DNA from: Escherichia phage vB_EcoP-ZQ2
Length of the DNA stretch: 64,000 bases
Direction: 5' to 3' (one strand)
Sequence record: NC_070874.1
A program made the translations under genes and the position numbers. The notes under the pieces are model-generated. The model searched no databases and had not been told where the DNA came from. It saw only the letters and a list, made by a program, of their open reading frames with translations. Each line of letters begins with the position of its first letter. The stretch's first letter is position 1. Below, piece after piece: positions 1-14,300 of the stretch.

Positions 1-561
1 ACCACATTGCAGTAAGAACTTGTTAAGTGCCCAAGGACCACTAGCAACAGTTTCCATTACATTCTCAAAAGTCTTGAGACGAATACCTTCGCCGAATACT
101 TCTTTAGGCTTGGCTTCTGAACCATAGAACGCAGTCATAACTGCCTGCTTAGTGTCACTACGTTTAATACGTGATGCTTCACCAAGGATATCCAGCATCT
201 TGTGATAGATGACTGTATAAGCATCACGGCGTAATGGCTTACCATTCTCTCCCATGTAGTTAACTACGTTACATAGTTCAGCAGCAGAACGGTCACCAGT
301 CAGACAAGCCAGTAACTGTAAGCCAGATGATGTAGCATCTAGAGCTACGGCATAACCAATAGGCTTACCTGCTTTCATATCTTTCCATGCGTTTACACCT
401 GCAAAGAACAGAGCAGAATCTTCAGCTTCATCTACCAGATTAAGCAGGTTAGCTTCGTTCTCATCGAACCAGGCAATACGTTCATCCCATGTCTTTTTAT
501 CTAAGCCATAGTTATTGGCGATATCTACTTTCAGGTATTCACGAGCGGTTAACAGTTGCAT
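1..561 (-). CDS. T7-like RNA polymerase catalytic subunit of a split heterodimeric RNAP (N4 RNAP II gp16-like); C-terminal part lies beyond the window start
   Basis: Minus-strand ATG at 561..559 with AAGGAA RBS 6 nt upstream; frame stays open to position 1 (absent from ORF track because no stop in window). Translation MQLLTAREYLKVDIANNYGL...KPIGYAVALDATSSGLQLLACLTGD aligns with the T7 RNAP segment around KPIG...AFDGSCSGIQHFSAMLRD (motif A Asp). Confidence 0.8.
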   Translation of the reverse strand, partial: MQLLTAREYLKVDIANNYGLDKKTWDERIAWFDENEANLLNLVDEAEDSALFFAGVNAWKDMKAGKPIGYAVALDATSSGLQLLACLTGDRSAAELCNVVNYMGENGKPLRRDAYTVIYHKMLDILGEASRIKRSDTKQAVMTAFYGSEAKPKEVFGEGIRLKTFENVMETVASGPWALNKFLLQCG

Positions 562-618
562 TTTATGTTCCTTTTGCTTCTTGGCTCCCCACTATGGAGA
601 GCCTGCTTATTGGATGGA

Positions 619-858
619 TTAGCCAGCATTAAATGATGACAATACTATTCCTGGTTCCACACCTTCGGTGGCAATACCCAGATACTCAACGTGCACTTTA
701 TCAGGAGAAGAACACCAAGAGGAGTATGCACTCCATTCTCCATCTGGGTTAATAAGACGAGCCTCTTCTACGGTTTTAGCAGCTACCACAGCAGAATCGA
801 ATGTATCCCAATCTGTATTCTCTTCCTGGCTAATAAGCCATAGTTTTAATCTACTCAT
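619..858 (-). CDS. hypothetical small protein (79 aa) inserted between the two RNAP II subunit genes
   Basis: ORF track; start overlaps the stop of the upstream subunit gene by 8 nt (translational coupling); no recognisable motif. Confidence 0.4.
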   Translation of the reverse strand: MSRLKLWLISQEENTDWDTFDSAVVAAKTVEEARLINPDGEWSAYSSWCSSPDKVHVEYLGIATEGVEPGIVLSSFNAG

Positions 859-1669
859 CGTTTACTAGCTCCTTATCAGCGAACTCCAGTACAGCTTTGT
901 TGTAACTGGTTCCCTGATAGTTGATGTGGTAACCACAGGCATAGGTACGCCCACGTTTGTCGTATTTGTGGGCCAGTGAGAAGTTATTACCTTCTTTGGT
1001 CACTAACTCCATTACTTCCTTGGCTGTACGGCTGTACTTCTCAAAGGCTTTAACACGTTTCTCATAGTCCTGACGGGTTTCACCTTCTTTGGGTTTATCC
1101 ATGTTAGGACGGGAGTCTTTTACATAGTTAGCAACGTCCCAGTTAATACAGAGACGTTGATTGTTCATACGGTTGATGTGGTCAAGACAGACATCCATCT
1201 CATGATGGTTCTTCTTGAGGATGATGCTACCTCTGCTTTCATAGTAACCAGTATCACGGTTACACTTAACAGGCTTAGGAGCACTTACGATAGGCAATGG
1301 ATACTGGAATGCTTCCAGTTCCATCTGTACATCTTCACTAATCTCATAGATAACACCGAACTTGTCGATGGTAGGGTCATAGTTGAAGCAATCATTCTCT
1401 GCCATCTTATACAGACAGTCAGCGATGTACTGAGCATCATCTGAGTGACTCATGAGAGAGCCAATCATAGTCTGGATGTCAGCACGTTTATGTAGGGCAA
1501 TCTGCACCATTGCATCAATGAGCAACTTATAATCAATTTCCAAATAGGCAGCGAATGCCTTAAAGTCAATTTCTTCGGAGTCCTCGAATTCCTTCCTCAT
1601 GCGAGGCAAGAGCTGATTTTTATTGAATAGTTTTTCGAGTTGCTTCTGATGTTCAATAGATGAGTACAT
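851..1669 (-). CDS. T7-like RNA polymerase N-terminal-homolog subunit of the split RNAP (N4 RNAP II gp15-like), 272 aa
   Basis: C-terminal KYDKRGRTYACGYHINYQGTSYNKAVLEF matches T7 RNAP DWRGRVYAVSMFNPQGNDMTKGLLTLA; the homology continues in the downstream partial ORF (1..561), so the polymerase is split into two genes. Confidence 0.8.
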   Translation of the reverse strand: MYSSIEHQKQLEKLFNKNQLLPRMRKEFEDSEEIDFKAFAAYLEIDYKLLIDAMVQIALHKRADIQTMIGSLMSHSDDAQYIADCLYKMAENDCFNYDPTIDKFGVIYEISEDVQMELEAFQYPLPIVSAPKPVKCNRDTGYYESRGSIILKKNHHEMDVCLDHINRMNNQRLCINWDVANYVKDSRPNMDKPKEGETRQDYEKRVKAFEKYSRTAKEVMELVTKEGNNFSLAHKYDKRGRTYACGYHINYQGTSYNKAVLEFADKELVNDE

Positions 1670-1692
1670 CGCTTATTCTCCTAAATGTGATT

Positions 1693-1720
1693 AATAACCA
1701 AAAGCTGCGGAGCAGCTATT
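1693..1720 (-). promoter_or_regulatory. N4-type virion-RNAP hairpin promoter (leftward transcription), upstream of the RNAP II subunit gene
   Basis: CCAAA-AGCTGC(1703-1708)-GGA(1709-1711)-GCAGCT(1712-1717): 6-bp stem, 3-nt GGA loop, CC 11-12 nt from loop centre; same architecture as the copies at 5068-5084 and 5960-5974 and as the N4 P2 hairpin as I recall it (GAAGC-GGA-GCTTC after CCAAAA). Confidence 0.6.
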
Positions 1721-1722
1721 AC

Positions 1723-1995
1723 CTATCGTTTAGTCCAAAAGGCAATACGAATACTGTTCTCGTGGTCAAGGTAGTCGATGCGTACATATAAGCCATTGCC
1801 TTTAAATTCATTACCTTTCCTTTGAAAAGGCCATACTTGACTACGCATGGGAATCTTAACTAAACCAGATATGTGACCCAGCTTAGTACGGATCTTTAAC
1901 TCGTTCTGTAATGCACAATAGATGTCATGTCGTGTAAGTGCTCTGGCTCTGACTTGAGCAGACCACAGTTCTTCATATGTCATTATTAACTCCAA
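1723..1995 (-). CDS. hypothetical early protein (90 aa)
   Basis: ORF track; lies directly upstream of the hairpin promoter at 1703-1717. Confidence 0.5.
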   Translation of the reverse strand: MELIMTYEELWSAQVRARALTRHDIYCALQNELKIRTKLGHISGLVKIPMRSQVWPFQRKGNEFKGNGLYVRIDYLDHENSIRIAFWTKR

Positions 1996-2336
1996 TAGTT
2001 GTAAGCATTACCTAAGTATTTACGCCATGCTTCTGGTAATAACACGTTGCCAGTAACATTGATGAACAGGTATGGGTCCAGAAAGTCATTACTCATGACT
2101 TTGAAATCCCACTGTGGATTAGAAGATGCATAGGCAATGAAGCCTTCAATAAAGCCATAGATAGCGCCCTCTTTGATACGGTTACCATTGCCATCCTTTA
2201 CTGGAATGGCAAAGCTATTACCACAATGACCATAGGCCATACCCCAACGAGCACCATGTTTCTTATAAGCTAACTTGGCAGCAGCATTGGTATGCTGCCC
2301 TAGTGTATTGGTAGTAAATACTAAGATTTCTTTCAT
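1986..2336 (-). CDS. hypothetical early protein (116 aa), Gly-rich N-terminal segment (possible nucleotide-binding fold, unassigned)
   Basis: ORF track; N-terminus ILVFTTNTLGQHTNAAAKLAYKKHGARWGMAYGHCGNSFAIPV; compact spacing to neighbours. Confidence 0.55.
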   Translation of the reverse strand: MKEILVFTTNTLGQHTNAAAKLAYKKHGARWGMAYGHCGNSFAIPVKDGNGNRIKEGAIYGFIEGFIAYASSNPQWDFKVMSNDFLDPYLFINVTGNVLLPEAWRKYLGNAYNYWS

Positions 2337-2338
2337 GA

Positions 2339-2659
2339 TTAATCCTTTGGTTTAAGTACCTGAAATGGGAACACAGGACGTTTACTACGCCACTGGTTCA
2401 TAGCCAATTCACTAGTTTCAGAACCATCATGTAAATCATAGATGAATGAGATTACATAGTCTGGTTCTTCCGGGAAGTTCTCTGTAGAGAAAGGTAGACC
2501 TGACTCCTTAAGAATAGGAACCAGTGGAGATTCAGCATTGCAGTACAGAGTAAACTCTTCATTGAATGCTTGGCTTGTTTGAGATACATAATCAATATTA
2601 CGCATCATCTTATCTACATCAGTAAATGTAGAATCATGAACTACTAAAATAGTTTTCAT
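2339..2659 (-). CDS. hypothetical early protein (106 aa)
   Basis: ORF track; 2-nt gap to the downstream gene and 4-nt overlap with the upstream gene, same strand. Confidence 0.55.
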   Translation of the reverse strand: MKTILVVHDSTFTDVDKMMRNIDYVSQTSQAFNEEFTLYCNAESPLVPILKESGLPFSTENFPEEPDYVISFIYDLHDGSETSELAMNQWRSKRPVFPFQVLKPKD

Positions 2660-2910
2660 ACCTTTCTCAATGTCCCATAGATGTTATTATCGACAATACT
2701 CAAATCACAAAAACCAATCTCTTCTTGTCTCCCAGAGGATACCCAGATATTGTTTTCTGTTAGCTTGGGCTTCTTAGAGAATCCTATCAGTGAGGTATTA
2801 GCACTCTTATACTGCCGAGTATATAGAGCTATATACTTAACCCAATGAGGCACTTGGATAGTATGTCCCATATATTCCACGTTCTTGCCTGTAGGATATG
2901 TAATAATCAT
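2656..2910 (-). CDS. hypothetical early protein (84 aa)
   Basis: ORF track; 4-nt overlaps with both neighbours. Confidence 0.5.
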   Translation of the reverse strand: MIITYPTGKNVEYMGHTIQVPHWVKYIALYTRQYKSANTSLIGFSKKPKLTENNIWVSSGRQEEIGFCDLSIVDNNIYGTLRKV

Positions 2911-3128
2911 TTCTGGTAACCTTCTATGAAGTTAGTACGACGAATGAGCTGAGTAGATGCTTTAACAGCTGTCTTCTTGAACTCATCTTTGTGTTGGTTT
3001 TCCAATATCCTATCCCATTCTTCCTGGTTCCGTCGTTTCTGTAGAATACGACTACACTTCTTATGATTAGCAACTCCTTTACGTTTGTTACATACAGGGC
3101 AAACACCATAATCAGTTGAGTACATCAT
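2907..3128 (-). CDS. hypothetical small protein with CxxC zinc-ribbon-like motif (73 aa)
   Basis: ORF track; CPVC...HKKC near the N-terminus, basic C-terminus. Confidence 0.5.
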   Translation of the reverse strand: MMYSTDYGVCPVCNKRKGVANHKKCSRILQKRRNQEEWDRILENQHKDEFKKTAVKASTQLIRRTNFIEGYQK

Positions 3129-3129
3129 T

Positions 3130-3375
3130 TTAGTTAAATCCGTAATAGTTAAAGTAAGGAGCCTTTCTGTCTTCGGTTGATTTGATAATCACTGACTCAT
3201 CCAGAAAGTACATCTTATTATTAATACGTACTTCTCTGTAAGATAGCTTACCAAAGTTACGTATATATACCTTTCTAACATATACCTTACGGGTATGCTT
3301 TAGCATGAACCAGGCATACCCTTTGGGATTCGCTAATATTGTTTTATCTACGATGACATCACTAAGATTGTTCAC
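3130..3375 (-). CDS. hypothetical early protein (81 aa)
   Basis: ORF track; operon-like spacing. Confidence 0.5.
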   Translation of the reverse strand: MNNLSDVIVDKTILANPKGYAWFMLKHTRKVYVRKVYIRNFGKLSYREVRINNKMYFLDESVIIKSTEDRKAPYFNYYGFN

Positions 3376-3676
3376 CGAGTGCCTCCATCAGTATCTTACG
3401 AATAACATTAACATCAGATTCAGTACCAATTAAGCCAACAGGCTTACCTGTACTATCTGTTACAAAGGATGCAATCCTTTCCATCTCTGCTGTAATTAAT
3501 TTATCACCACTAATAAGACGATTACGAAGGTAAGCCTCATAAGCTACCTCTACATCTTCTACTGTGGTTCTTTCATTACGAGTGAATGGATTGCTTAACG
3601 GGAATGGTAAGTGGATACGTATATTCCGGTCAGCTATCTTAGCTGAATGAGGGAGTATACAAACAATTTCATTCAA
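3362..3676 (-). CDS. hypothetical early protein (104 aa)
   Basis: ORF track; preceded upstream (minus sense) by a terminator hairpin. Confidence 0.55.
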   Translation of the reverse strand: MNEIVCILPHSAKIADRNIRIHLPFPLSNPFTRNERTTVEDVEVAYEAYLRNRLISGDKLITAEMERIASFVTDSTGKPVGLIGTESDVNVIRKILMEALGEQS

Positions 3677-3714
3677 GGTTATTTCTCCTATTTAAATACA
3701 TATCTAACTATTCA

Positions 3715-3747
3715 AGAATAAAAAATAGAAGCCCTCCTAATGGAGGA
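3715..3747 (-). terminator. rho-independent terminator (minus strand)
   Basis: Stem CCTCC(3733-3737)/GGAGG(3742-3746) with TAAT loop; in minus sense followed by CTTCTATTTTTTATTC. Confidence 0.5.
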
Positions 3748-3867
3748 CTCCTTGTTATTTGATACACGGATGATTGAAGGTAACAATCTTACGTACTGGT
3801 TCAGACGTCTGTTTCTTAACAGCCAGACGCTCTTTCATCTTCTGTACGTCTTCTTTGGTTCCCATGA

Positions 3868-4050
3868 TTAATGATTTACGCATGATTTAGTTGTCCACAT
3901 AAAGTTAAAAGGTTTATTGTTACGTACAATTCTTACAACCATTTGATAGCCATTGAGTTGCACAACACCATAGTGTCGTTTCTGTACACCAGTGTGATAC
4001 CTACGAAAGATACATTCTTCAATGGCATCTTCTATGTTAGTGAATATCAC
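3868..4050 (-). CDS. hypothetical small protein (60 aa)
   Basis: ORF track only. Confidence 0.35.
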   Translation of the reverse strand: MIFTNIEDAIEECIFRRYHTGVQKRHYGVVQLNGYQMVVRIVRNNKPFNFMWTTKSCVNH

Positions 4051-4094
4051 TGGTTCTCCCGTAATACTGACAATTGAGCACAGGTGAATAACGT

Positions 4095-4247
4095 TTACAC
4101 ATCTCCACCTGGTTCATCTCTACCACGAGCATCACTCCCTATGACTGCAAACATACCAATAATTACACCTACAGCTAATAACCATGGAAATGCAGCTACC
4201 AGCAGTATCATTAATAAAATGCACAGAATCTCTACCAGTAGCTTCAT
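4095..4247 (-). CDS. small hydrophobic membrane protein (50 aa), not in ORF track (below its length cut-off)
   Basis: Minus-strand ATG at 4247..4245 with AAGGA RBS about 7 nt upstream; translation MKLLVEILCILLMILLVAAFPWLLAVGVIIGMFAVIGSDARGRDEPGGDV; fits tightly after the 4252..4437 gene. Confidence 0.4.
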   Translation of the reverse strand: MKLLVEILCILLMILLVAAFPWLLAVGVIIGMFAVIGSDARGRDEPGGDV

Positions 4248-4251
4248 AGCA

Positions 4252-4437
4252 TTATCCTTTGTGAAGTTTACGGATTTGTTTACGAGTAGGTTTAGCTACA
4301 AAGAAGTGGTCATAACATTGACCATTTTCATCTTTTACGGATACCTGCCAACGTGCATTCAGTGACATCTTACTGCCCCATGGTTGCAACATAACAATCA
4401 TCTTCTGTGAGTTATAACGGTTACATAATGTACGCAT
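4252..4437 (-). CDS. hypothetical small protein (61 aa)
   Basis: ORF track; the overlapping plus-strand ORF 4084..4365 is judged spurious. Confidence 0.4.
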   Translation of the reverse strand: MRTLCNRYNSQKMIVMLQPWGSKMSLNARWQVSVKDENGQCYDHFFVAKPTRKQIRKLHKG

Positions 4438-4540
4438 AATGGTTACTCCTTCATCTAATATAAATCTATATCTATCTGGTTACTGTTTCAGTACCCTTCG
4501 TCTAAAGATACTCAAAAAGTAGAAATAGCTTATCGTCTAG

Positions 4541-4572
4541 TTAAAAATAAAAGACTCCCCGAAGGGAGTCTT
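4541..4572 (-). terminator. rho-independent terminator (minus strand)
   Basis: 9-bp stem AAGACTCCC(4551-4559)/GGGAGTCTT(4564-4572), CGAA loop, followed in minus sense by TTATTTTTAA; sits just after the stop of the gene ending at 4581. Confidence 0.55.
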
Positions 4573-4580
4573 GTAGTTGA

Positions 4581-4961
4581 TTAGAAAGTCAGTTTACGAG
4601 CATATTTATTCTCGTCTGCTGGGATGTCAGCAGCCTCTGCTTTCACGCGTCTTAGCTGAACTTGCAGGTTAATGATACCCTCTTCACCTGGTTCCAGGTT
4701 CTGAGCATATGCGATTAACTGTTCCAGCAAGTCGTTCTGTGCACAACGCATAGCACGGAAGTCAGCGTTGCTGCTATTAGTAGGCAGCGGTTCCTGAGTA
4801 TCCAGTGGAATACCAGTAGGCAGTGAGATGAATTTCTCATCATCAGAGCCTTCATTAGCTACATAACCAATGTTCAGCCAGAACTGAGCTTTTGGTTTGT
4901 CAGTTTTAGCAGTGGTAGCAGCAGCGTTAGATTGACCGAAAGTGAATTTTTGAATAGCCAT
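4581..4961 (-). CDS. hypothetical early protein (about 126 aa from the internal start MAIQKF)
   Basis: ORF track gives 4581..5054, but that N-terminal extension runs into the promoter hairpin at 5068-5084 and lacks an RBS; the ATG at 4961..4959 has a GGAGAG RBS 7 nt upstream. Confidence 0.5.
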
Positions 4962-5058
4962 TTTGTACTCTCCAGATTTATGTGATTTACGGGTGAACTC
5001 GTCGGTGAGAACACCCAAACAAAGGGATAAAAGTTCAATGATTAGTGGATGCATTTAC

Positions 5059-5084
5059 ATCATCCATAAGACGCGGAGCGTCTT
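5059..5084 (-). promoter_or_regulatory. N4-type virion-RNAP hairpin promoter (leftward)
   Basis: CATCCATAA-AGACGC-GGA(5075-5077)-GCGTCTT: 7-bp stem (5068-5074/5078-5084), GGA loop, CC 11-12 nt from loop centre; intergenic between the genes ending at 5090 and starting at 4961. Confidence 0.6.
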
Positions 5085-5089
5085 TATTT

Positions 5090-5305
5090 TCAGAATGGAC
5101 AGCTTGTTTCAGCTTCAAGTTTGTCCATGAAGTAGCCTGAGTTATGCAGATAAGCATGTAATTCAACATGCCCTTGCATACGGTATTCATCGAGTAAGGA
5201 GAGAAACTCTCCATACTCTTTATCTGTAGACCTTCTTGCGTTACTGAGGTCTACGGGTTTATTACTAAAGCAACTCTCAATCATACGGATATTTTCTACA
5301 TTCAT
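5090..5305 (-). CDS. hypothetical early protein (71 aa)
   Basis: ORF track. Confidence 0.45.
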   Translation of the reverse strand: MNVENIRMIESCFSNKPVDLSNARRSTDKEYGEFLSLLDEYRMQGHVELHAYLHNSGYFMDKLEAETSCPF

Positions 5306-5359
5306 GGATGACTCCTAATTGGTTGAAATGTATCCGTAAGCTGTGGAACAGCTTAGTTT

Positions 5360-5506
5360 TTACTTATCTGATAGCAGGATGGATTTTACTTTGTGACCAT
5401 TACCATAGTCAGTGTTTACCAGAGGTTTTACAATGTGAACGGAAACCATCACAACAATTGCAAGGACACAAACAGTTAAGATAAATGCGTTTTCTAGTTT
5501 GCTCAT
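5360..5506 (-). CDS. small hydrophobic membrane protein (48 aa), not in ORF track
   Basis: Minus-strand ATG at 5506..5504; translation MSKLENAFILTVCVLAIVVMVSVHIVKPLVNTDYGNGHKVKSILLSDK with one predicted transmembrane helix; fills an otherwise empty 290-bp gap. Confidence 0.35.
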   Translation of the reverse strand: MSKLENAFILTVCVLAIVVMVSVHIVKPLVNTDYGNGHKVKSILLSDK

Positions 5507-5564
5507 AGTAGGAATCTCTTTTAACTTTTTATGCAGAATAGTTGAACTATCTAATGCCCTTAAC

Positions 5565-5586
5565 AGGAGGCTCCTAAGAGCCTCCT
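5565..5586 (-). terminator. stem-loop after the gene ending at 5594 (terminator or RNA-stability hairpin; weak U tract)
   Basis: 9-bp stem AGGAGGCTC(5565-5573)/GAGCCTCCT(5578-5586) with CTAA loop. Confidence 0.35.
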
Positions 5587-5593
5587 AATTGAG

Positions 5594-5917
5594 TTATTCT
5601 TTAGTCAGGATGTCGATGACTTTGGAATATTCTGCGTTATAGATACGAGCGTTCTCAGAATCCTTGCAGAATTCCTCGATACTTTTCTTACGCAGAGTCT
5701 CAGTCATAGCTGTTTCCTCTGCCAGTTTATTAACGAATGTATGCATTTCTAATTTAGTACGAATGGCTTGTTTCTCTGCCATAGTACTTACATATGAATT
5801 AAGCATACCTACTGCTTTAGTTGCAGTACCAAAGGTATCTGCAACAGTAGTAGCAGCTGAGTTAACAGTACCAAGCAGAGTTCCTGCGGTCATACGTACA
5901 GTAGCTTGAGTAGTCAT
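5594..5917 (-). CDS. hypothetical early protein (107 aa)
   Basis: ORF track; first gene downstream of the hairpin promoter at 5960-5974. Confidence 0.55.
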   Translation of the reverse strand: MTTQATVRMTAGTLLGTVNSAATTVADTFGTATKAVGMLNSYVSTMAEKQAIRTKLEMHTFVNKLAEETAMTETLRKKSIEEFCKDSENARIYNAEYSKVIDILTKE

Positions 5918-5949
5918 GATGATAGCTCCAATAGTTGATGATAGGACGA

Positions 5950-5975
5950 CATGTCCATAACATGCGGAGCATGTG
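5950..5975 (-). promoter_or_regulatory. N4-type virion-RNAP hairpin promoter (leftward)
   Basis: GTCCATAA-CATGC-GGA(5966-5968)-GCATG: stem 5960-5965/5969-5974, GGA loop, CC 11-12 nt from loop centre. Confidence 0.6.
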
Positions 5976-6118
5976 TAACGTGTAAGGTGGGGTAGGGTAG
6001 TGGCTACACCGTCAACATACCGGGGGGGATGGTTGAGTGTAAGGGTGTAGCCCTAGGTGTACCACTGCAGCTGTACATAGCTATGACCAAAATGGTATGC
6101 AAAAATATGATAGCTATC

Positions 6119-6445
6119 CTACTTATAAGCAGTTAAATAGGAGGAAGGAATCTGGGAGAGGATGTGGTCATAGTAATAGCAGTATGCTTCACTATTGGTA
6201 GAGTTTACAGGCATACCTATGTAGTCAAACACCCACAAACAGAAGTGGTTGAGTTCGTGGATGAGTGTATGTAAGGGTTCCATAAAGATACCGATCAATA
6301 CTCGATTACCAGAGTAAGAAGTATATCCCTTACAACCATCCAAGTCTGGCTCATACCCTTTAAGTTTCTTGTACTTTTTAATGAAGGTATCCCGGTCGAA
6401 TACTACTTCTAACTGTACCGGGTAGGGGGATGTGTTTAGTTTCAT
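6119..6445 (-). CDS. small HExxH (zincin-like) putative metallopeptidase (108 aa)
   Basis: ORF track; HTLIHELNHF contains HExxH; start overlaps the stop of upstream paralog E by 4 nt (co-transcribed). Confidence 0.5.
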   Translation of the reverse strand: MKLNTSPYPVQLEVVFDRDTFIKKYKKLKGYEPDLDGCKGYTSYSGNRVLIGIFMEPLHTLIHELNHFCLWVFDYIGMPVNSTNSEAYCYYYDHILSQIPSSYLTAYK

Positions 6446-6726
6446 TGCCTTTCCTTGTAGATTGGGGTGTTACCCTCGAAGGATAGGATGTACTTGTCTG
6501 TATTGAGATGCCAAGGACTAAAGCTACCTTGCCAGGACATAGGTGTTCCTGGTTCAAGTAAATATACTTCTGCCTTCTTATTGTATAAGAAAAGTAATCC
6601 TTGTAATTCATGCAGAGACTGCTCATCTGGAACCAAGATAAGTACATCTGCGTCTAGATTAGTTATATCTTTATGACGGTAGTAGTCATCCTCAAGTACT
6701 GCTGAATAAATTTTACTGATAACCAT
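6442..6726 (-). CDS. member E of a tandem paralogous small-protein family (94 aa)
   Basis: Shares core LILVPDEQSLHELQGLLFLYN with the four upstream ORFs; TAATG stop/start overlap with member D. Confidence 0.6.
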   Translation of the reverse strand: MVISKIYSAVLEDDYYRHKDITNLDADVLILVPDEQSLHELQGLLFLYNKKAEVYLLEPGTPMSWQGSFSPWHLNTDKYILSFEGNTPIYKERQ

Positions 6727-7046
6727 TAGAGGCTCTCGTCGCTAGATAAATATGAGGTAGATGGGTAGAGGGTAATAAGTCTCCCTGTTAGGGTAGTTAC
6801 TACCATAGGTTCATTCTCAGACAGTACGTATACACTGGTGTGTTCTGGTATTTCCATAGAATCTACTATCTTAATGAACTGGATAGGTTGCCCCAACAGC
6901 AGGCAAGTACCAATGAACACATCTGCTTCTTCACTTGGCTCATACAGGATGGTGGTAACCCTCCCTTTACCTGCCAGAATATTATCCAGTGTGTATGGGG
7001 ATAAATAACAAGTAGTGGCAAAGCTAATAAGACAATACAGATGCAT
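6726..7046 (-). CDS. member D of the tandem paralogous family (106 aa)
   Basis: Core TTILYEPSEEADVFIGTCLLLGQ, a more divergent copy of the family motif. Confidence 0.55.
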   Translation of the reverse strand: MHLYCLISFATTCYLSPYTLDNILAGKGRVTTILYEPSEEADVFIGTCLLLGQPIQFIKIVDSMEIPEHTSVYVLSENEPMVVTTLTGRLITLYPSTSYLSSDESL

Positions 7047-7049
7047 ACC

Positions 7050-7361
7050 TTACTTCCTTACGTAGTAGTAACGATACTCACCCTTCTCATAACGACTCTC
7101 CCATTGATAGCTATCAGATACCATCATGTATGGAATAGGGTCATTAGCGTTATAGTTGGTATAGACAGAAGGGGGAATAATACATACAACCTTACGGTCA
7201 TTACCTGCTAGGAAGAGTTGACCCCTTACTTCATGGTAGTCCTCTAGGGTAGGAACCAGGATTACTTGCTGAGGATTGCTGTTCATGACTTCTTCTAAAG
7301 TGAAGTCAGTTGTATACATAGGCTCTTTAGCAAAACTGGGGATAGTCATTATGAATTTCAT
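7050..7361 (-). CDS. member C of the tandem paralogous family (about 103 aa; start uncertain, 7361 or 7319)
   Basis: Core VILVPTLEDYHEVRGQLFLAGN; the track ORF 7050..7436 overlaps member B in another frame, so an internal start is preferred. Confidence 0.55.
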   Translation of the reverse strand: MKFIMTIPSFAKEPMYTTDFTLEEVMNSNPQQVILVPTLEDYHEVRGQLFLAGNDRKVVCIIPPSVYTNYNANDPIPYMMVSDSYQWESRYEKGEYRYYYVRK

Positions 7362-7725
7362 GATGGATTTTCCTTCCTTTGGGAATGGGTCTGAAGTAAA
7401 CGGAAAGTGTTTTATTAAAGAGGTTATGTTCAACAATCATTTCCCAACCGGGTACTTTATAGAACCGGATTCCAGGGAAGAATGTTTCGAAGTCTGCATA
7501 CTCAGTAAGGTCATACACCTTTGGTTCAGTAAGTATCTCAGTGTTAAGTTGCAGGTTGTATAGGAAAAAAGAACCAATAATCTCGTGTGATTCCTCGCAA
7601 TCAGGAAAGAATACTGACTGTCTTGGGGATAACATCTTACTTACTACCTCTGGTTCCTCTAGGTAATATGGTTCTTGCTTGCGTAGCATACCGGTAATAT
7701 CAATATCAAAAGCATAAATGCTCAT
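7327..7725 (-). CDS. member B of the tandem paralogous family (132 aa)
   Basis: Core SVFFPDCEESHEIIGSFFLYN; AGGAGG RBS before the ATG at 7725; preceded by a terminator. Confidence 0.6.
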   Translation of the reverse strand: MSIYAFDIDITGMLRKQEPYYLEEPEVVSKMLSPRQSVFFPDCEESHEIIGSFFLYNLQLNTEILTEPKVYDLTEYADFETFFPGIRFYKVPGWEMIVEHNLFNKTLSVYFRPIPKGRKIHHEIHNDYPQFC

Positions 7726-7740
7726 AGTTGCATACCTCCT

Positions 7741-7777
7741 GAAAAAGAAATGGGGTAGAGCCTCTCGACTCTACCCC
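7741..7777 (-). terminator. rho-independent terminator (minus strand) between paralog A and paralog B
   Basis: 9-bp stem GGGGTAGAG(7752-7760)/CTCTACCCC(7769-7777), 8-nt loop; in minus sense followed by ATTTCTTTTTC and then the AGGAGG RBS of the next gene. Confidence 0.6.
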
Positions 7778-7925
7778 TTACCGTTTTCTATCACGGGTCA
7801 GTTCATCACCCTAGATACATGTGTATCGTTAGCCTACTAGGTAGGAAAGGAGCCGGGCAACCCTGACTGTAGAAGTTACTAACTCTTTACGAGTACCGCC
7901 ACTGTCTACTAGGCGGCATGACTAA

Positions 7926-8216
7926 TCACATCGTCACCGTCATCCGAACACTGTCTTTGCTTCGCCTGACGGAGACACTATGAGGTAATTTTGTGAAGAA
8001 CACAAGAGAGGAAAATGTTTTATCTAAAGTATAAGTTTCCCTTGGTTCTTTGATGGCAATGTTAGGACGGTTCTCTAATAGCATAATTCCAGACAACTCA
8101 TGGAATGTATCATCATCGTGGGTGACTATGATGTCACCTGGGAAGAAGCCAGCCTTGGTGTGGTCTATCTCTGCGTATACATCTTTGGAGTCGTGGACTC
8201 TCATATAGATTCTCAA
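7926..8216 (-). CDS. member A of the tandem paralogous family (96 aa); probable TTG start
   Basis: Core DIIVTHDDDTFHELSGIMLLEN; AAGGAG RBS 6 nt upstream of the TTG at 8216..8214; C-terminal extent uncertain. Confidence 0.5.
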   Translation of the reverse strand: MRIYMRVHDSKDVYAEIDHTKAGFFPGDIIVTHDDDTFHELSGIMLLENRPNIAIKEPRETYTLDKTFSSLVFFTKLPHSVSVRRSKDSVRMTVTM

Positions 8217-8387
8217 AGGTTACTCCTTTTGGGAATAGGGTCATCGGAACATTACATACTATTTAGTATCATGAACTTTTTCTATATCATGACTAAAGTG
8301 TAACTGTATGGTATCGTTTCTTCAAGGGGTATCTCACCCCAAGAAAAGAATCTTCTTTAATAGACATAACTTTGTAGCGAGATAAGT

Positions 8388-9077
8388 ATGAGTGAACTAA
8401 CTAAGCAGCAGATTATTAATGCCTTACCTGCTAACTTCAAAAACAGTGTGACCCAGGAGTTGGTAGACACAATTAACAACATAACCCAAGACCAACTAGT
8501 TGCTGAGTCCTTTCGTGAAAACTTTATCTCCTACTCTGGTGTAATGAAGGAAGGTAAGTTTAAGACACAGGACTACATGAATGCAGTTCAGTATGTAACT
8601 TATAAACATATGGGCTACTCAAATAAGGAAGCCTACTTCAAAACATTCCCCAACCGACAAGCAGAACTTGTTGCACGAGGAACCAGTGAGAAAGATATTA
8701 GTGCTTATGTATCTGCTTACCACAGGGGTAAGTTAGTTAACCTCATCATGGAACAAAGTTTGGTTCCAGTGTGGATTGTGAACCAAGACAATTATCAGAA
8801 GGCAATCAACGTTCAGGTTGAACTGATGACTTCAGCAGCAAGTGAGAAAGTAAGATGTGATGCAGCTAACTCTATCCTTACTCACTTAGCTAAGCCAAAG
8901 GACCAGGTAACGAATATCAATCTGGACTTAAGAGAGAACTCCGGATTAACTGACCTCAAGGCAACACTTGCTGCATTAGCTGAACAGCAGATTAATGCAA
9001 TCAATAGTGGTGTACCTACTAAAGAGGTTGCTGGTTCTAAACTAGTACGAGCAGATGAGGACATTACAGATGTCTGA
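8388..9077 (+). CDS. first gene of the late operon, directly upstream of the large terminase (N4 gp69-like position; possible small terminase subunit)
   Basis: ORF track (229 aa); overlaps the large terminase start; function inferred from position only. Confidence 0.55.
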   Translation: MSELTKQQIINALPANFKNSVTQELVDTINNITQDQLVAESFRENFISYSGVMKEGKFKTQDYMNAVQYVTYKHMGYSNKEAYFKTFPNRQAELVARGTSEKDISAYVSAYHRGKLVNLIMEQSLVPVWIVNQDNYQKAINVQVELMTSAASEKVRCDAANSILTHLAKPKDQVTNINLDLRENSGLTDLKATLAALAEQQINAINSGVPTKEVAGSKLVRADEDITDV

Positions 9078-10659
9078 GTTAATTAAACAGGAACTAGATG
9101 AATGGCTAGACCAGGTGGATTACTCCCACCTAAACTCTTCCAACTATGTTCCCAGTCAGTTTGCTCTTACCTTTGCTAACTTTATTAAGTTGGTTAATGG
9201 CAAAGAGGGTGAGTCCAACAAAACACCTCCGGTTCACTTAAAGATGCTGGATAAAATGATTAGTCCGAACCAGTACGTAGTTAACCTATGCTTCCGTGGT
9301 GCAGGTAAGACTGCTGTATTCATGGAATACTTTACATTGTTTCTGGCAGTGTTCGGTCACTTACCTAGCTTGGGTAAAGTAGAAGGAATGATTTACGTAT
9401 CTGACTCAATGGATAACGGTGCTAAGTCTGCACGTAAGAACATTGAGTTCCGTTACAAGAATAGTGAGTTCCTTCAGCAATGGATACCTGAAGCTACCTT
9501 TACGGATAACCTATTAGAGTTTCGTAATGTAGAAGGGCATCGACTCGGAGTTAAGCTGTTTGGTGCTAAGACAGGTCTTCGTGGTACGAAGATATATGGT
9601 AAACGCCCAACACTTTGTGTACTGGATGACTTGATTAGTGATGGTGATGCTAACTCCAAGACGAGTATGGAAGCTATTAAAGATACTGTCTATAAAGGTG
9701 TGAACCATGCTCTTGACCCTACCCGTCGTAAAGTAATCTTCAACGGTACTCCCTTTAATAAGGAAGATATTATCATTGAAGCAGTTGAGTCTGGTGCATG
9801 GGATGTAAACGTATGGCCCGTTTGTGAGAAATTCCCGTGTAGTAGAGAAGAATTTCAGGGTGCATGGGATGACCGTTTCTCTTACGACTACATCAAAGCC
9901 CAATATGACATGGCAGTTAAGACCGGTAAGCTGGCAGGTTTCTATCAGGAACTTATGCTCCGTATTAGCTCTGAAGATGAGAGACTGGTTCAGGATAGTG
10001 AAATAAGATGGTATAGCAGACAGCAACTATTAAAGATGAAGTCCTGCTATAACTATTACATTACAACTGACTTTGCTACATCGGAGAAACAGACCAGTGA
10101 CTATAGTGTCATATCAGTTTGGGCTTATAGTTCTAATGGAGATTGGTTCTGGGTTGATGGTGTGGCTAATCGTCAGCTTATGGATAAAAACTTTGATGAC
10201 CTGTTCCGTCTGGTTCAGGAATACCAACCACAAAACGTTGGGGTTGAAATCACAGGACAACAAGGTGGATTCATCTCACTTCTTCAGAAGGAAATGATTA
10301 ACCGTAATGTCTTCTTTAACTTTGCATCCTCTGTGGGTGGTAAGCCAGGCATCCGTCCTGTAACCTCTAAGCTGTCACGTTTTAACCTAGTAGTTCCATG
10401 GTTCAAAGCTGGTAAGATGTACTTCCCGGAAGAGTTGAGAGATTCAACTATTATGGGTCTGTTCATGGGCCAGATTAAACTAGCTACCATTAACGGAATA
10501 AAGGGTAAGGATGACTGTATTGATACTATCTCCATGCTGGGTTATCTCAATCCTTGGAAACCACAAGCAGGTATGACTATGGTGGATAACAAAGGTGACC
10601 CAATGTGGGATGATGAAGAAGAAGATAGTGTTAACCCACTACGTTCATACATTGTGTGA
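9055..10659 (+). CDS. terminase large subunit
   Basis: 534 aa; Walker A CFRGAGKTA, Walker B-like LCVLDD, C-terminal nuclease-type acidic residues (ITTDFA, DDCIDT). Confidence 0.8.
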   Translation: MRTLQMSELIKQELDEWLDQVDYSHLNSSNYVPSQFALTFANFIKLVNGKEGESNKTPPVHLKMLDKMISPNQYVVNLCFRGAGKTAVFMEYFTLFLAVFGHLPSLGKVEGMIYVSDSMDNGAKSARKNIEFRYKNSEFLQQWIPEATFTDNLLEFRNVEGHRLGVKLFGAKTGLRGTKIYGKRPTLCVLDDLISDGDANSKTSMEAIKDTVYKGVNHALDPTRRKVIFNGTPFNKEDIIIEAVESGAWDVNVWPVCEKFPCSREEFQGAWDDRFSYDYIKAQYDMAVKTGKLAGFYQELMLRISSEDERLVQDSEIRWYSRQQLLKMKSCYNYYITTDFATSEKQTSDYSVISVWAYSSNGDWFWVDGVANRQLMDKNFDDLFRLVQEYQPQNVGVEITGQQGGFISLLQKEMINRNVFFNFASSVGGKPGIRPVTSKLSRFNLVVPWFKAGKMYFPEELRDSTIMGLFMGQIKLATINGIKGKDDCIDTISMLGYLNPWKPQAGMTMVDNKGDPMWDDEEEDSVNPLRSYIV

Positions 10660-10665
10660 GGAACC

Positions 10666-11376
10666 ATGCAGAAATTATCGGAAGTATATCGTGGCTTAGC
10701 ACTAAGTACCTTGAAGGGTACTGGTGCAGTCACGGATGACAGATTAGGCATTGAGCCAGACAGTAAGCCAGAAATATTGGCTGCTATTAATGAAGGGTTG
10801 GTACGATTGCATAGTCGTTTCCCTCTCCGAACTAATAGCTGCATTGTGGAGATGAAAGAAGGTCGTACTGACTACCCTCTTCAATCTCGGTATGCTTACT
10901 CCCGGTTTACTAAACCTACTCTTGAGATTCAATATCCATATATCATGGATGGGTTCATGAAACCTTTCCAGGATGACGTTATTAAAATCTTAAATGTGTT
11001 TGATAACTCTGGGAATCGACGTAGACTGAACGACGACTCAGACCCTAATGCAATCTTCACCCCAAGACCTGATACTATTCAATGTATGCGACCTCGACAC
11101 TTCGAGGCACTTAACGTAACTTATCAAGCTAAGCACCCAGTACTTACGGGTGATGAAGAACAGGAAGTTGACTTAGCAGACACGCTAATGACAGCACTTC
11201 ATAACTGGGTGGGTTATCGTTACCACACTGGTTTGAATACTCCGGAAGCTAATGCTAAGGCAGTAGAGTATCTGCAAACGTATGAAAGCATCTGTGGTGA
11301 GGTTGTTGATTACGACCTGGCTAATGGAAGTATTTCAATTACCGAAACTAAATTTGAACAACGAGGATGGCGATGA
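10666..11376 (+). CDS. virion structural protein (N4 gp67-like position)
   Basis: ORF track (236 aa); between terminase and tail fiber; start 7 nt after the terminase stop. Confidence 0.55.
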   Translation: MQKLSEVYRGLALSTLKGTGAVTDDRLGIEPDSKPEILAAINEGLVRLHSRFPLRTNSCIVEMKEGRTDYPLQSRYAYSRFTKPTLEIQYPYIMDGFMKPFQDDVIKILNVFDNSGNRRRLNDDSDPNAIFTPRPDTIQCMRPRHFEALNVTYQAKHPVLTGDEEQEVDLADTLMTALHNWVGYRYHTGLNTPEANAKAVEYLQTYESICGEVVDYDLANGSISITETKFEQRGWR

Positions 11377-14300
11377 ACGCACATACCCCCTTTGATGCAA
11401 ATCAGGATTGGTCTAATCCTTACTGTCAGAACAGTTCCAATGATCCTATGGTAGATGCACTACTTGGTAATGCTTACCATGTGGTTCGAACTGTTTACTG
11501 TAACTTGGGTAACCTGAAACTTATCTATGACTTCCTTAACCAGTATGGAATGGTACTTGGTGTACAGTCTGAAGCAGAACTTAAAGCACTAACAACCAAA
11601 GCTAAGTATGCACGTATCTATGGATTCTCTCGTGCAGGTGACCGTCAGGTAACTGACTACCTGTATGTGGAAGGTGATCGTACGGGTATTATTCCAGACG
11701 ATCCAAAGGCAACCGGTTCGTGGATTACTGTTGCTACTTCTGGTTCTAATAGTGGTGGTACTTCCTCTGGGGAAGGTGCTTATATTCCTTGGGTATACGA
11801 CAATGGTTCTGCTGCTGGTGGGGAAACCACAATCAACGTACCAGATGGTACGGTAGGTGTACCTTTTATCATTATTAATGGGGATATGCAGTATGTAGGA
11901 CGTGGCTTTGAATTTAATGCAGATAGCCTGTCGGTAACTCTGGCTCAACCTCTGGAAGAAGGTGATGAGGTAGTATTCCTTCTGACTGGAGTTCCTGCTG
12001 TACCAGATAATCCTAACGTTAATGACTGGGTTCAGATTAACTGGTTATATAACAATGGTGCTGCTATAGGTGGTGAGCAGGTTATTGCTATCCCTTATAC
12101 CTTCCAGTCTGTTCCTGCTGTGTATAAGAATGGGCTTCGTTTGTATAAAGGATTAGCTACTGAGTCATATACTGCTGACCCGGATAACCAACGTATACTT
12201 CTTACAGAACCACTGGCAACCAATGACCGGCTAATTGTGCAGATTGGTGGTGAAGCACAGGTACTGGAAACAGCAGACCATACCCTTCAGGAAGTTGCTC
12301 GTGCTACTAACGTTAAGGATAGTGAGGTAATTCTTAGTACAGATACTACCCAGTTCCTGAATAATAAGAAGGTTATTTATTCTGTTAGTGAGCAGAAAGC
12401 ATATGGATTACCTGTACTACCAACTAACGTATTCATTCAGTCTGTAAGCAATGGCAAGTTAATTTACTCACCTGGATCCATTGAAGTAGACCTAATCCCC
12501 GTACCCAATTCTGCAGAGAGTTTGGAACAGGCACTGTCAGCTGAAAATGGTGCATCGTTGATTGTAGATAAACTCCCGTATGCTGGAGCAGTACCAAGAA
12601 CCCAGCACGATATAAATTCACAATTTAGTAATATTCTTGACTTTCTAGGCGATGGGTATGATGGCACTACGGATGCTGCAGGAGCCTTTATCTCTGCCAA
12701 CACACTCGTTCCGAAAAGTAGAGAGATTGTTGTTCCAAGTGGGGTGTATCTTCTCAATAGTGACGTGGATTGTTCCGGTCGCCGTTTTACATTTGAGGAG
12801 CCTGTGACATTTACTGGTATTGGTAAGTTCTACCGGGCTATTGTCAATAGAATTATGCCGGATGGAACAACTCGGGTTTCTCAGTGGGCCAAACCAGGAA
12901 CTACCGAATATATGACGGCATCTGCTGTTTTCGGTGACAATGGGGCTACAGCAACTGGCATTCAGATTGGTGGAGCTGTGCCATACAATGGCACAGATGG
13001 TGTCATGATGTTTACCGATGGTAGCTCTGGGTGGTTAGGTGTTCGTGCATCTAAGTGGCCCCACCCTACGGAAATGGCGATATATCCAAGCTCTAAAGCT
13101 GGGTCATGTCAGACAATCTCAGGCAGTAATGCTGTAAAAAGACTGTCGGGTGCTAGCATTACGGCTGAAGCGATTGGGAAACCAATTTCCATCTATGATT
13201 CCCTATATACCATATCGACCATAACAGCAGATGGTTTTACTGTTAAGAATATTAATGGAACACCCGTTACTTGGGGGTCAACGGCAACTCACTCATTCAT
13301 TTTATGCTATTACAATGGTAGTGGTTTGTGCAGCGTATCTGGTACTACTGTGACACGTATTAGTGGCGACCCATTTGTAATTCCTGACCCGACAGTACCA
13401 CAAACAATGACTATAAACGGTATTGACTACCGTGTAGTGTCTTTTACAGACCCTCAACATGTTACCCTTAATTCTGCTCCAGGGGATTCAGCGTTAACGG
13501 AATATAAATTCTGGGGCACAGTCAATAGCCTTAACTCTGCTCTTAGGATTCATCGACTCAATGCTGCTGGGTTTGAGGAAAATATTAGTCTCATTGCTAA
13601 TAATGCTGGCTATTTTGCATTACACGCCGCAGCTGGTAACCCAGCCAATGAGCAGTATCCAATCTATATTGGGTCAGGTTGGGAAGATAACGGACAGATG
13701 CGTAAGAGTATTATCTCTGCAGGTAATGGAGATGTAACTCTTGGTGGGGGTTATGGAAATGGGCCGTTATACGTGCCATATAATCAAACATCTGGCCGCC
13801 CGCAAGTCATGGTGGATAACAGTACGGGTACAGCCACCATTTCGTCTACTGGCGGACCTACTCCGGATGCATCGTTAGCTATTAAAGCTAAGGGTACAGG
13901 TAGGGTTGTGTTTCACTCCGAGGTCGGGGTTAACGCTGCGATATACCCCTACATAGATAACGTTTATTCATGCGGTCAATCCGGGAATAGGTGGTCACAG
14001 ATATGGGCATCGAACGCCACCATCCAGACTTCTGATGGGACGACAAAAACTGCAGTTCAAGCATCCGACTTATCTACAGACTTTATTCTTGGTCTAAACC
14101 CTGTTTCTTATAAGAACATTGTCGGGGGAAATGTTGTAGAAGAGGTTGAAGATGGCGTAGAAGAAATTGAACGACAAGTGGTAGAAAAAGTTACTTCTTC
14201 TGAAGAAGTCCATGAACGCGTTGTTGATGGTGATGAAGTCTACTACGTTCGCAAGTTTGTTAACAAGGAAGTAGAACGACCAGTATTTCATGATGTTGAG

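Follow-up and report, generated by a model that had tools for sequence, protein, structure and literature searches.

Lytic phages carry tandemly amplified, diversifying families of accessory genes, as in counter-defence and host-takeover islands. Here we describe such a family in Escherichia phage vB_EcoP-ZQ2 (NC_070874.1), of which a stretch of 64,000 nucleotides, referred to below as the window, was analysed. Five consecutive open reading frames (ORFs) on the minus strand, designated A to E, encode the members of the array, and a structured RNA lies between A and B (Table 1). Like the accessory islands, the array consists of small, strongly diverged genes in tandem, varies in copies and alleles, and lies at a genome end beside accessory genes such as the neighbouring gene F. 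Unlike them, it lacks homology to known inhibitors and occupies the last-entering rather than the first-entering part of the genome. The family is new, but it is of a familiar kind, the diversifying accessory genes of lytic phages.

The closest described counterparts are gp70 and gp71 of phage N4 (YP_950548 and YP_950549) and gp70, gp71, gp71.1 and gp71.2 of phage G7C, direct orthologues that share position, orientation and spacer with the array. A corresponds to gp70 and B to gp71 of both phages, and C and D correspond to G7C gp71.1 and gp71.2. E has no counterpart in G7C; together with F it forms an insertion relative to that phage. Overall, the region is 85-91% identical at the nucleotide level to that of the G7C-like N4-like coliphages (Gamaleyavirus, Schitoviridae). 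Although N4 has long served as a model phage, no function has been assigned to its gp70 and gp71. N4-like phages, Gamaleyavirus among them, have been reported to resist restriction-modification systems to a notable degree (PMC11990801), and their accessory genes are largely unexplored. The public records of N4 and G7C list the proteins as 'hypothetical protein' or 'gp70' and do not state that they are paralogues of each other. In PHROGs, each member matches its own entry end to end (E-values from 1e-41 to 1e-65; Table 1), and the five entries stand as unrelated families without a known function, between which only weak cross-hits appear (E-values from 2e-4 to 0.2). A literature search on the function of N4 gp70/gp71, N4-like transcriptomes, gene-essentiality screens and N4 small RNAs returned nothing specific. 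The genes are already public as hypothetical proteins. No account was found in the literature of their shared origin, their distribution, the structure predicted for them or their actual place in the genome.

Relationship, distribution and predicted structure of the five proteins

An earlier note on this DNA had read A to E as a tandem array of diverged paralogues sharing a core in which a hydrophobic strand and an acidic stretch precede an H-E-x-x-G motif. The coordinates of the five ORFs and their motifs were verified, and the resemblance is significant against shuffled controls. Smith-Waterman alignments compared with 1000 shuffles gave z values of 7.0 (A-E), 7.3 (B-C), 8.1 (C-E) and 4.9 (B-E), with the neighbouring proteins F and gp1 behaving as negative controls. 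E is the central member with significant similarity to A, B and C, whereas D was not significantly similar to any single member in this test. Shallow profile-profile comparison, using profiles from orthologues in 13 related loci, linked A-E, B-C and C-E at P values of about 3e-6 to 1e-5. As the C-E alignment spans 76 columns, the homology reaches outside the motif.

D, the most diverged member, was connected to the others at the profile level. A hidden Markov model (HMM) from which D had been withheld was iterated over all ORFs of 83 N4-like sources and ranked ten of ten D orthologues at the top, with E-values between 2.6e-5 and 0.017 (9e-4 for D of the window). When an alignment of 72 D sequences was compared with the D-free family profile by hhalign, the register fell exactly on the motif (P 6.3e-6). 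The score of 31.9 contrasts with 10.0 +/- 1.9 for column shuffles (maximum 18.9 in 300 trials; z about 11) and with 10.6 for the reversed D alignment. Moreover, HMMs built by leaving out one cluster at a time recovered every withheld subfamily, with best E-values of about 4e-8 to 1e-7 for the A, B and C/E groups. The D-free HMM, hhalign and shuffle results therefore indicate that all five proteins are homologous. On these sequence comparisons, A to E are one protein family, which we define here as the N4 gp70/gp71 superfamily. No further member was found elsewhere in the window.

The family HMM was iterated to convergence with 82 loci fetched around gp69 homologues. It recognises 105 ORFs in 25 of the 83 sources. 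Every one of the 105 lies on the strand opposite to gp69, adjoining it and in tandem, between gp69 and the right terminal repeat, as do the five ORFs of the window. Single-linkage clustering divides them into at least seven subfamilies. Loci bearing the family hold one to six copies: two in N4, four in G7C, five in the window, six in several other Gamaleyavirus loci, which include subfamilies not present in the window, and two to six in N4-like phages of Achromobacter. More distant N4-like loci hold none. The phages concerned infect Escherichia, Shigella, Klebsiella and Achromobacter. Member A gave tblastn matches in 85 N4-like phage records, each annotated as hypothetical, of which two are labelled Pseudomonas and the others belong to these four genera.

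When 1.84 billion cluster representatives were scanned exhaustively with HMMER, only 19 clusters were returned at an E-value of 0.001 or below, all of them small proteins of the array type save one repeat protein, and no credible relatives were found outside the N4-like phage group. The match to P0127, a protein of 1380 aa with proline-rich tandem repeats (E-value 2.9e-9), is made up of eight repeated matches of about 38 residues each (VVKECLDEPQGSILLHGTDLH) and was judged to be spurious, an additive repeat artefact. In the high-GC Achromobacter phage vB_AxyP_19-32_Axy10 (locus L012, positions 1-2800), six members with overlapping ends stand in tandem. A 2.76-Mb contig with the label Enterococcus faecium encodes an E-type protein (P0069) 80% identical to E of the window, probably because the record is contaminated with phage DNA or chimerically assembled.

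In comparison with Gamaleyavirus relatives that share about 98% identity in gp69 and gp68, the array members retain 65-85% amino-acid identity. The ratio of non-synonymous to synonymous substitution rates (dN/dS) is 0.13-0.22 for the array as compared with 0.02-0.03 for gp68/gp69, and dS is higher, too. D alleles are only 56-92% identical among phages with 97-100% identical gp69. Copy number, ranging from zero to six among relatives, and allele content differ between phages that are otherwise nearly identical, in agreement with the description as tandem, strongly diverged paralogues. A dN/dS below 1 reflects purifying selection, and the genes are therefore real. Turnover far faster than that of the core fits accessory genes that have been exchanged or have diversified among close relatives. 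As judged from these comparisons, tandem duplication has expanded the family at the right end of N4-type genomes.

Prediction of one member gave a confident small alpha/beta domain. The AlphaFold2 model of E, based on a family alignment of 22 sequences, reached a predicted local distance difference test (pLDDT) score of 87.7 and a predicted template-modelling (TM) score of 0.78. It consists of a beta-hairpin (residues 2-20), a strand (28-32), a helix (35-47), a further strand (52-56), a loop and a second beta-hairpin (79-92). The motif of the earlier note corresponds to the central strand, the acidic turn and the helix of this model. The glycine in the middle of the helix is the sole invariant residue. 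D and some of the Achromobacter members have lost the His-Glu pair, and this pattern speaks for a scaffold and against a catalytic site. In BFVD, Foldseek found only uncharacterised N4-like phage proteins, among them C-type and B-type paralogues with 17-19% identity and TM scores of 0.6-0.76. The model of E and the BFVD models of the B and C types describe single-domain alpha/beta proteins with one predicted common fold.

Solved counterparts were not found in the PDB, either by Foldseek (no match better than an E-value of 0.27, query-normalised TM score at most 0.35) or by a sequence search with the family profile (nothing at an E-value of 10 or below). The Foldseek matches include strand-helix-strand units of CheY-like receiver, PBP-type and Toprim-like proteins, which resemble the family in the succession of hydrophobic strand, acidic turn and helix. 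These matches cover 30-60 residues only, with a probability of at most 0.38 and TM scores no higher than the 0.35 given above. With weak partial matches of this sort and no Pfam hits, membership in these folds was rejected on present evidence. Scattered sub-threshold matches were all that Pfam, NCBIfam and PADLOC yielded when every member was scanned, and none of these matches recurred across the 22 family members. The members are soluble, mostly acidic proteins (isoelectric point 4.3-6.5) of about 95-130 aa. Neither membrane segments nor signal peptides were found in them; the Kyte-Doolittle maximum over 19 residues exceeds 1.6 only marginally, in D. The family thus combines a confident predicted structure, for which no solved counterpart was found, with confinement to a single phage lineage.

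A conserved RNA in the spacer between A and B

A and B are separated by a spacer of 200 nt. The earlier note had placed a terminator between A and the remaining genes, and a strong intrinsic terminator with an 11-bp stem and a T-run is indeed present. The T-run ends 17 nt ahead of the ATG of B and abuts its ribosome-binding site. As the genes from B to F overlap or are coupled behind this terminator, they would therefore be expressed only by read-through.

Comparative analysis indicates that the spacer is more than a terminator, namely a conserved structured RNA with a wider distribution than the proteins. It is conserved from Gamaleyavirus through N4 to Achromobacter phages, with Escherichia, Klebsiella and Achromobacter as hosts, and folds better than shuffled sequences (z about -2.7). 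Since alignment of the spacers across genera by MAFFT was misleading, a covariance-model alignment was used instead. The model, R1, was built from five sequences, comprises eight helices and matches at least 19 loci. In 19 distinct sequences, 97.1% of the cells are paired, as compared with 69.7% in shuffles and 35-51% when the partners are slid, and compensatory changes occur in 34 of the 41 pairs; these figures refer to an alignment fitted by the model, which inflates pairing. RNAalifold independently recovers six helices, with 27 of 31 pairs compensated. The blocks AAUAAC, CAG and CUCC are single-stranded and invariant. To judge from the G-U pairs and the T-run, the functional strand is that of the array.

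In every locus bearing both, the RNA directly follows A. R1 detects it in all loci with A-type genes except L012, where the gp70-type gene is followed by a gap of 59 nt without a match. As this locus has six copies of the protein gene, the proteins can exist without the RNA. Conversely, the RNA occurs in distant N4-like loci and metagenomic relatives that are devoid of the protein family (L013, L027, L035 and L053), where it keeps the same place just upstream of gp1 and the terminal-repeat region. A search against Rfam over window positions 1-12000 yielded no match to the spacer at an E-value of 1 or below, and no tRNA or tmRNA was found in it. The element could be a stand-alone RNA or one derived from a 3′ untranslated region, a gate for read-through into B to F, or a single-stranded signal close to the end of the genome. 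Strongly covarying, missing from Rfam and shared by N4-like phages with gamma- and beta-proteobacterial hosts, the RNA may outweigh the proteins in interest.

Genome position and possible roles of the array

The N4 genome enters the cell with its left end first, and full entry depends on transcription by the virion RNA polymerase (vRNAP) and then by the phage RNA polymerase II (RNAPII), so that it is reached only once the machinery for middle transcription has been produced (PMC4496689). Late transcription in N4 relies on the host sigma-70 polymerase together with N4SSB and proceeds leftward, against the direction of the early and middle transcripts (PMC4496689). In the window, three hairpins of the N4 vRNAP promoter type precede gp1, gp1.2 and gp2 and set both the orientation and the physical left end of the permuted assembly. 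In G7C, gp1 begins 145 nt from the left end. Therefore, by analogy with G7C, the physical left end of the present genome would lie at about position 6061, between F and the first hairpin. The window is a circular permutation of a linear genome. The G7C equivalents of the array are located at 70.2-71.7 kb of its 72.9-kb linear genome, between gp69/gp68 on the terminase side and the terminal-repeat region, and N4 has gp70, gp71 and the 43-aa gp72 at the corresponding place. Comparison with these relatives places the array at the extreme right end of the virion DNA, which enters the cell last.

N4-type early genes lie downstream of vRNAP hairpins at the first-injected left end, and the array does not. 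Late genes lie in the right half and run leftward, whereas the array runs rightward, i.e. with early/middle polarity and opposite to the late operon of gp69/gp68. With rightward polarity at the last-entering end, it is thus neither an early nor a typical late unit. As the earlier note had stated, the divergent junction with the late operon is next door. The intergenic region between gp69 and A contains the hairpin GGGGTGAGATACCCC after a T-run, with compensatory variants in relatives, and an invariant block, GTTA[CG]ACTTTAG. This block was considered as a repeated promoter consensus and rejected, for the window holds one exact copy and mismatch counts are below chance. A convincing sigma-70 consensus was not found in the intergenic region, which probably holds divergent promoters for A and the late operon or the site of a regulator.

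We propose that A and the RNA would constitute the main transcription unit, driven from the gp69-A intergenic region and transcribed once the whole genome is inside the cell, in the middle phase or later. B to E and F, being translationally coupled, would be produced at a lower level by read-through of the terminator. In the middle or late phase of infection, the proteins would bind or inhibit host or defence proteins stoichiometrically. The paralogues would share a scaffold of strand, acidic turn, H-E-x-x-G helix and strand, and their surfaces would be diversified so that separate copies cover separate variants of a target. To this package as a whole, accessory binders or inhibitors whose paralogues cover different target variants, we assign a probability of roughly 0.4. 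Its final step, the binding of host or defence targets, is the least certain part and a best guess that falls below this figure. An anti-defence or host-takeover role is plausible. As a single expandable family, the array offers a small and tractable set of targets for probing the last-entering end of the genome.

Several points weigh against this proposal. Genes that enter last cannot protect the incoming DNA, and therefore fewer defences could be countered by them. A core phage function is also conceivable for A (gp70), given its wide conservation and its link to a conserved RNA. With dN/dS values well under 1, positive selection is not proven. Pfam, NCBIfam, the PDB and the defence and anti-defence models scanned, among which there was no dedicated anti-defence library, yielded no match; PADLOC gave one weak hit for C (E-value 0.022, 12.8 bits) and none for the other members. 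Finally, the model of D from its own shallow alignment (pLDDT 48) is uninformative, a failure explained by the 86-97% identity of the D orthologues in it.

The main rival, which we hold to be possible though doubtful, is a phage-internal role at the genome end, in which the RNA or the terminal repeat would be the partner of the whole family or, at a minimum, of A/gp70. RNA binding or an RNA chaperone, processing or packaging of concatemer ends together with gp69/gp68, and replication of the right end are examples. Such a role would suit proteins that always adjoin gp69/gp68 and the right terminal repeat and that have the RNA immediately behind A wherever both are present, and an RNA that stays by gp1 in relatives lacking the proteins. 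However, the two components occur independently, the RNA in the four protein-less loci and the proteins in the Achromobacter locus without a model hit. Copy numbers between zero and six and rapid allele turnover would be unusual for core replication or packaging factors, and acidic proteins are poor candidates for nucleic-acid binding.

A further reading, which we regard as unlikely, takes the locus as a hitherto undescribed two-component module made of an ancient RNA of about 185 nt and an expandable protein array without a detectable relative in the PDB. The terminator of the RNA may gate the downstream paralogues, or the RNA may act in trans. The paralogues would then be a new class of mid/late inhibitors of host immunity, for instance of sensors that detect late proteins.

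Superinfection exclusion or another late accessory role, such as lysis timing or an influence on host physiology, would leave the same signature of variable copy number and fast evolution as counter-defence, and expression after full entry suits functions of the middle or late phase. Most known exclusion proteins, however, act at the envelope, and the members are devoid of membrane segments and signal peptides. We consider this alternative quite improbable.

The earlier note had suggested that host RNA polymerase may transcribe the array as an immediate-early unit and had likened its pattern to host-takeover or anti-defence loci; such a unit would be transcribed before the hairpin promoters fire. 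The small, acidic and diversifying proteins would fit this idea, as would the location of the array upstream of all three hairpins. This location holds on the circularly permuted assembly but not in linear virion DNA, as relatives with defined ends place the array at the right terminus, by the terminal repeat. Entry from the left end, dependent on vRNAP and then RNAPII, and the use of host RNA polymerase for late, leftward transcripts in N4 argue in the same direction (PMC4496689). Without a good sigma-70 promoter upstream of A and with the array at the end that enters last, an immediate-early role is very unlikely.

That the motifs resemble each other by chance or composition, or that some of the ORFs are not genes, is effectively refuted already: although D alone is not significantly similar to any single member and PHROGs files the five separately, shuffle, profile and leave-one-out tests all link the members, dN/dS is well below 1 in each of them, the family alignment gives a confidently predicted fold for E and the control protein F scores at the null level.

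Gene features and the neighbouring gene F

The features of the locus and the RNA elements of other loci are listed in Table 1. Shine-Dalgarno sequences are clear for A, B, C and D and weak for E (GAGAG), and the TTG start codon of A lines up with the ATG of N4. By their Shine-Dalgarno sequences, the purifying selection acting on them and the many phages that carry orthologues, all five ORFs are genes of the expressed type.

Table 1. Positions of the array, its neighbours and the associated RNA and promoter elements (window coordinates unless another locus is named)
Feature	Position	Strand	Remarks
Member A	7926..8216	-	96 aa; TTG start, 6 nt after AAGGAG; phrog_7213
Member B	7327..7725	-	132 aa; phrog_9160; 3′ end overlaps C by 35 nt
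Member C	7050..7361	-	103 aa; phrog_11661
Member D	6726..7046	-	106 aa; phrog_12099; start 3 nt past C stop; most diverged member
Member E	6442..6726	-	94 aa; phrog_16338; start overlaps D stop (TAATG)
F	6119..6445	-	108 aa; HExxH motif (HELNH, in LIHELNHF); phrog_1365
Structured RNA element	7742..7925	-	about 185 nt, eight helices; starts 8 nt past A stop, ends in intrinsic terminator
Terminator stem	7777-7752		11 bp, with T-run
gp69/A intergenic region	8217..8387	.	divergent; kept from Gamaleyavirus to Achromobacter phages (as far as Axy10)
Invariant block in intergenic region	8293-8304		
gp1	5594-5917		phrog_5020
N4-type hairpin promoter	5960-5974	-	GGA loop; perfect stem of 6 bp
N4-type hairpin promoter	5337-5355	-	GGA loop; perfect stem of 8 bp
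N4-type hairpin promoter	5068-5084	-	GGA loop; perfect stem of 7 bp
RNA in L014	5365-5556		
RNA in L022	1842-2011		
RNA in L025	4565-4741		
RNA in L027	4686-4854		
RNA in L035	4365-4533		
RNA in L013	2854-3033		
RNA in L053	1521-1682		

F is translationally coupled to E through an ATGA overlap, and in relatives it is embedded between members of the family (e.g. at 3689-4003 of L007). Its homologues are confined to Gamaleyavirus-like contigs of about 70 kb and have neither a Pfam domain nor a name. F could be a minimal metallopeptidase. We also considered F as a diverged member of the array, or the family as a degenerate zincin, and rejected both: the profile score of F (12.0) falls inside the shuffle null of 9.8 +/- 1.9, and the array members have H-E-x-x-G instead of the HExxH of F.

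The overlap between B and C (7327-7361) places the last 11 codons of B over the first 11 of C in a different frame. It is also annotated for gp71/gp71.1 of G7C and, at 35 nt, exceeds the usual coupling overlaps.

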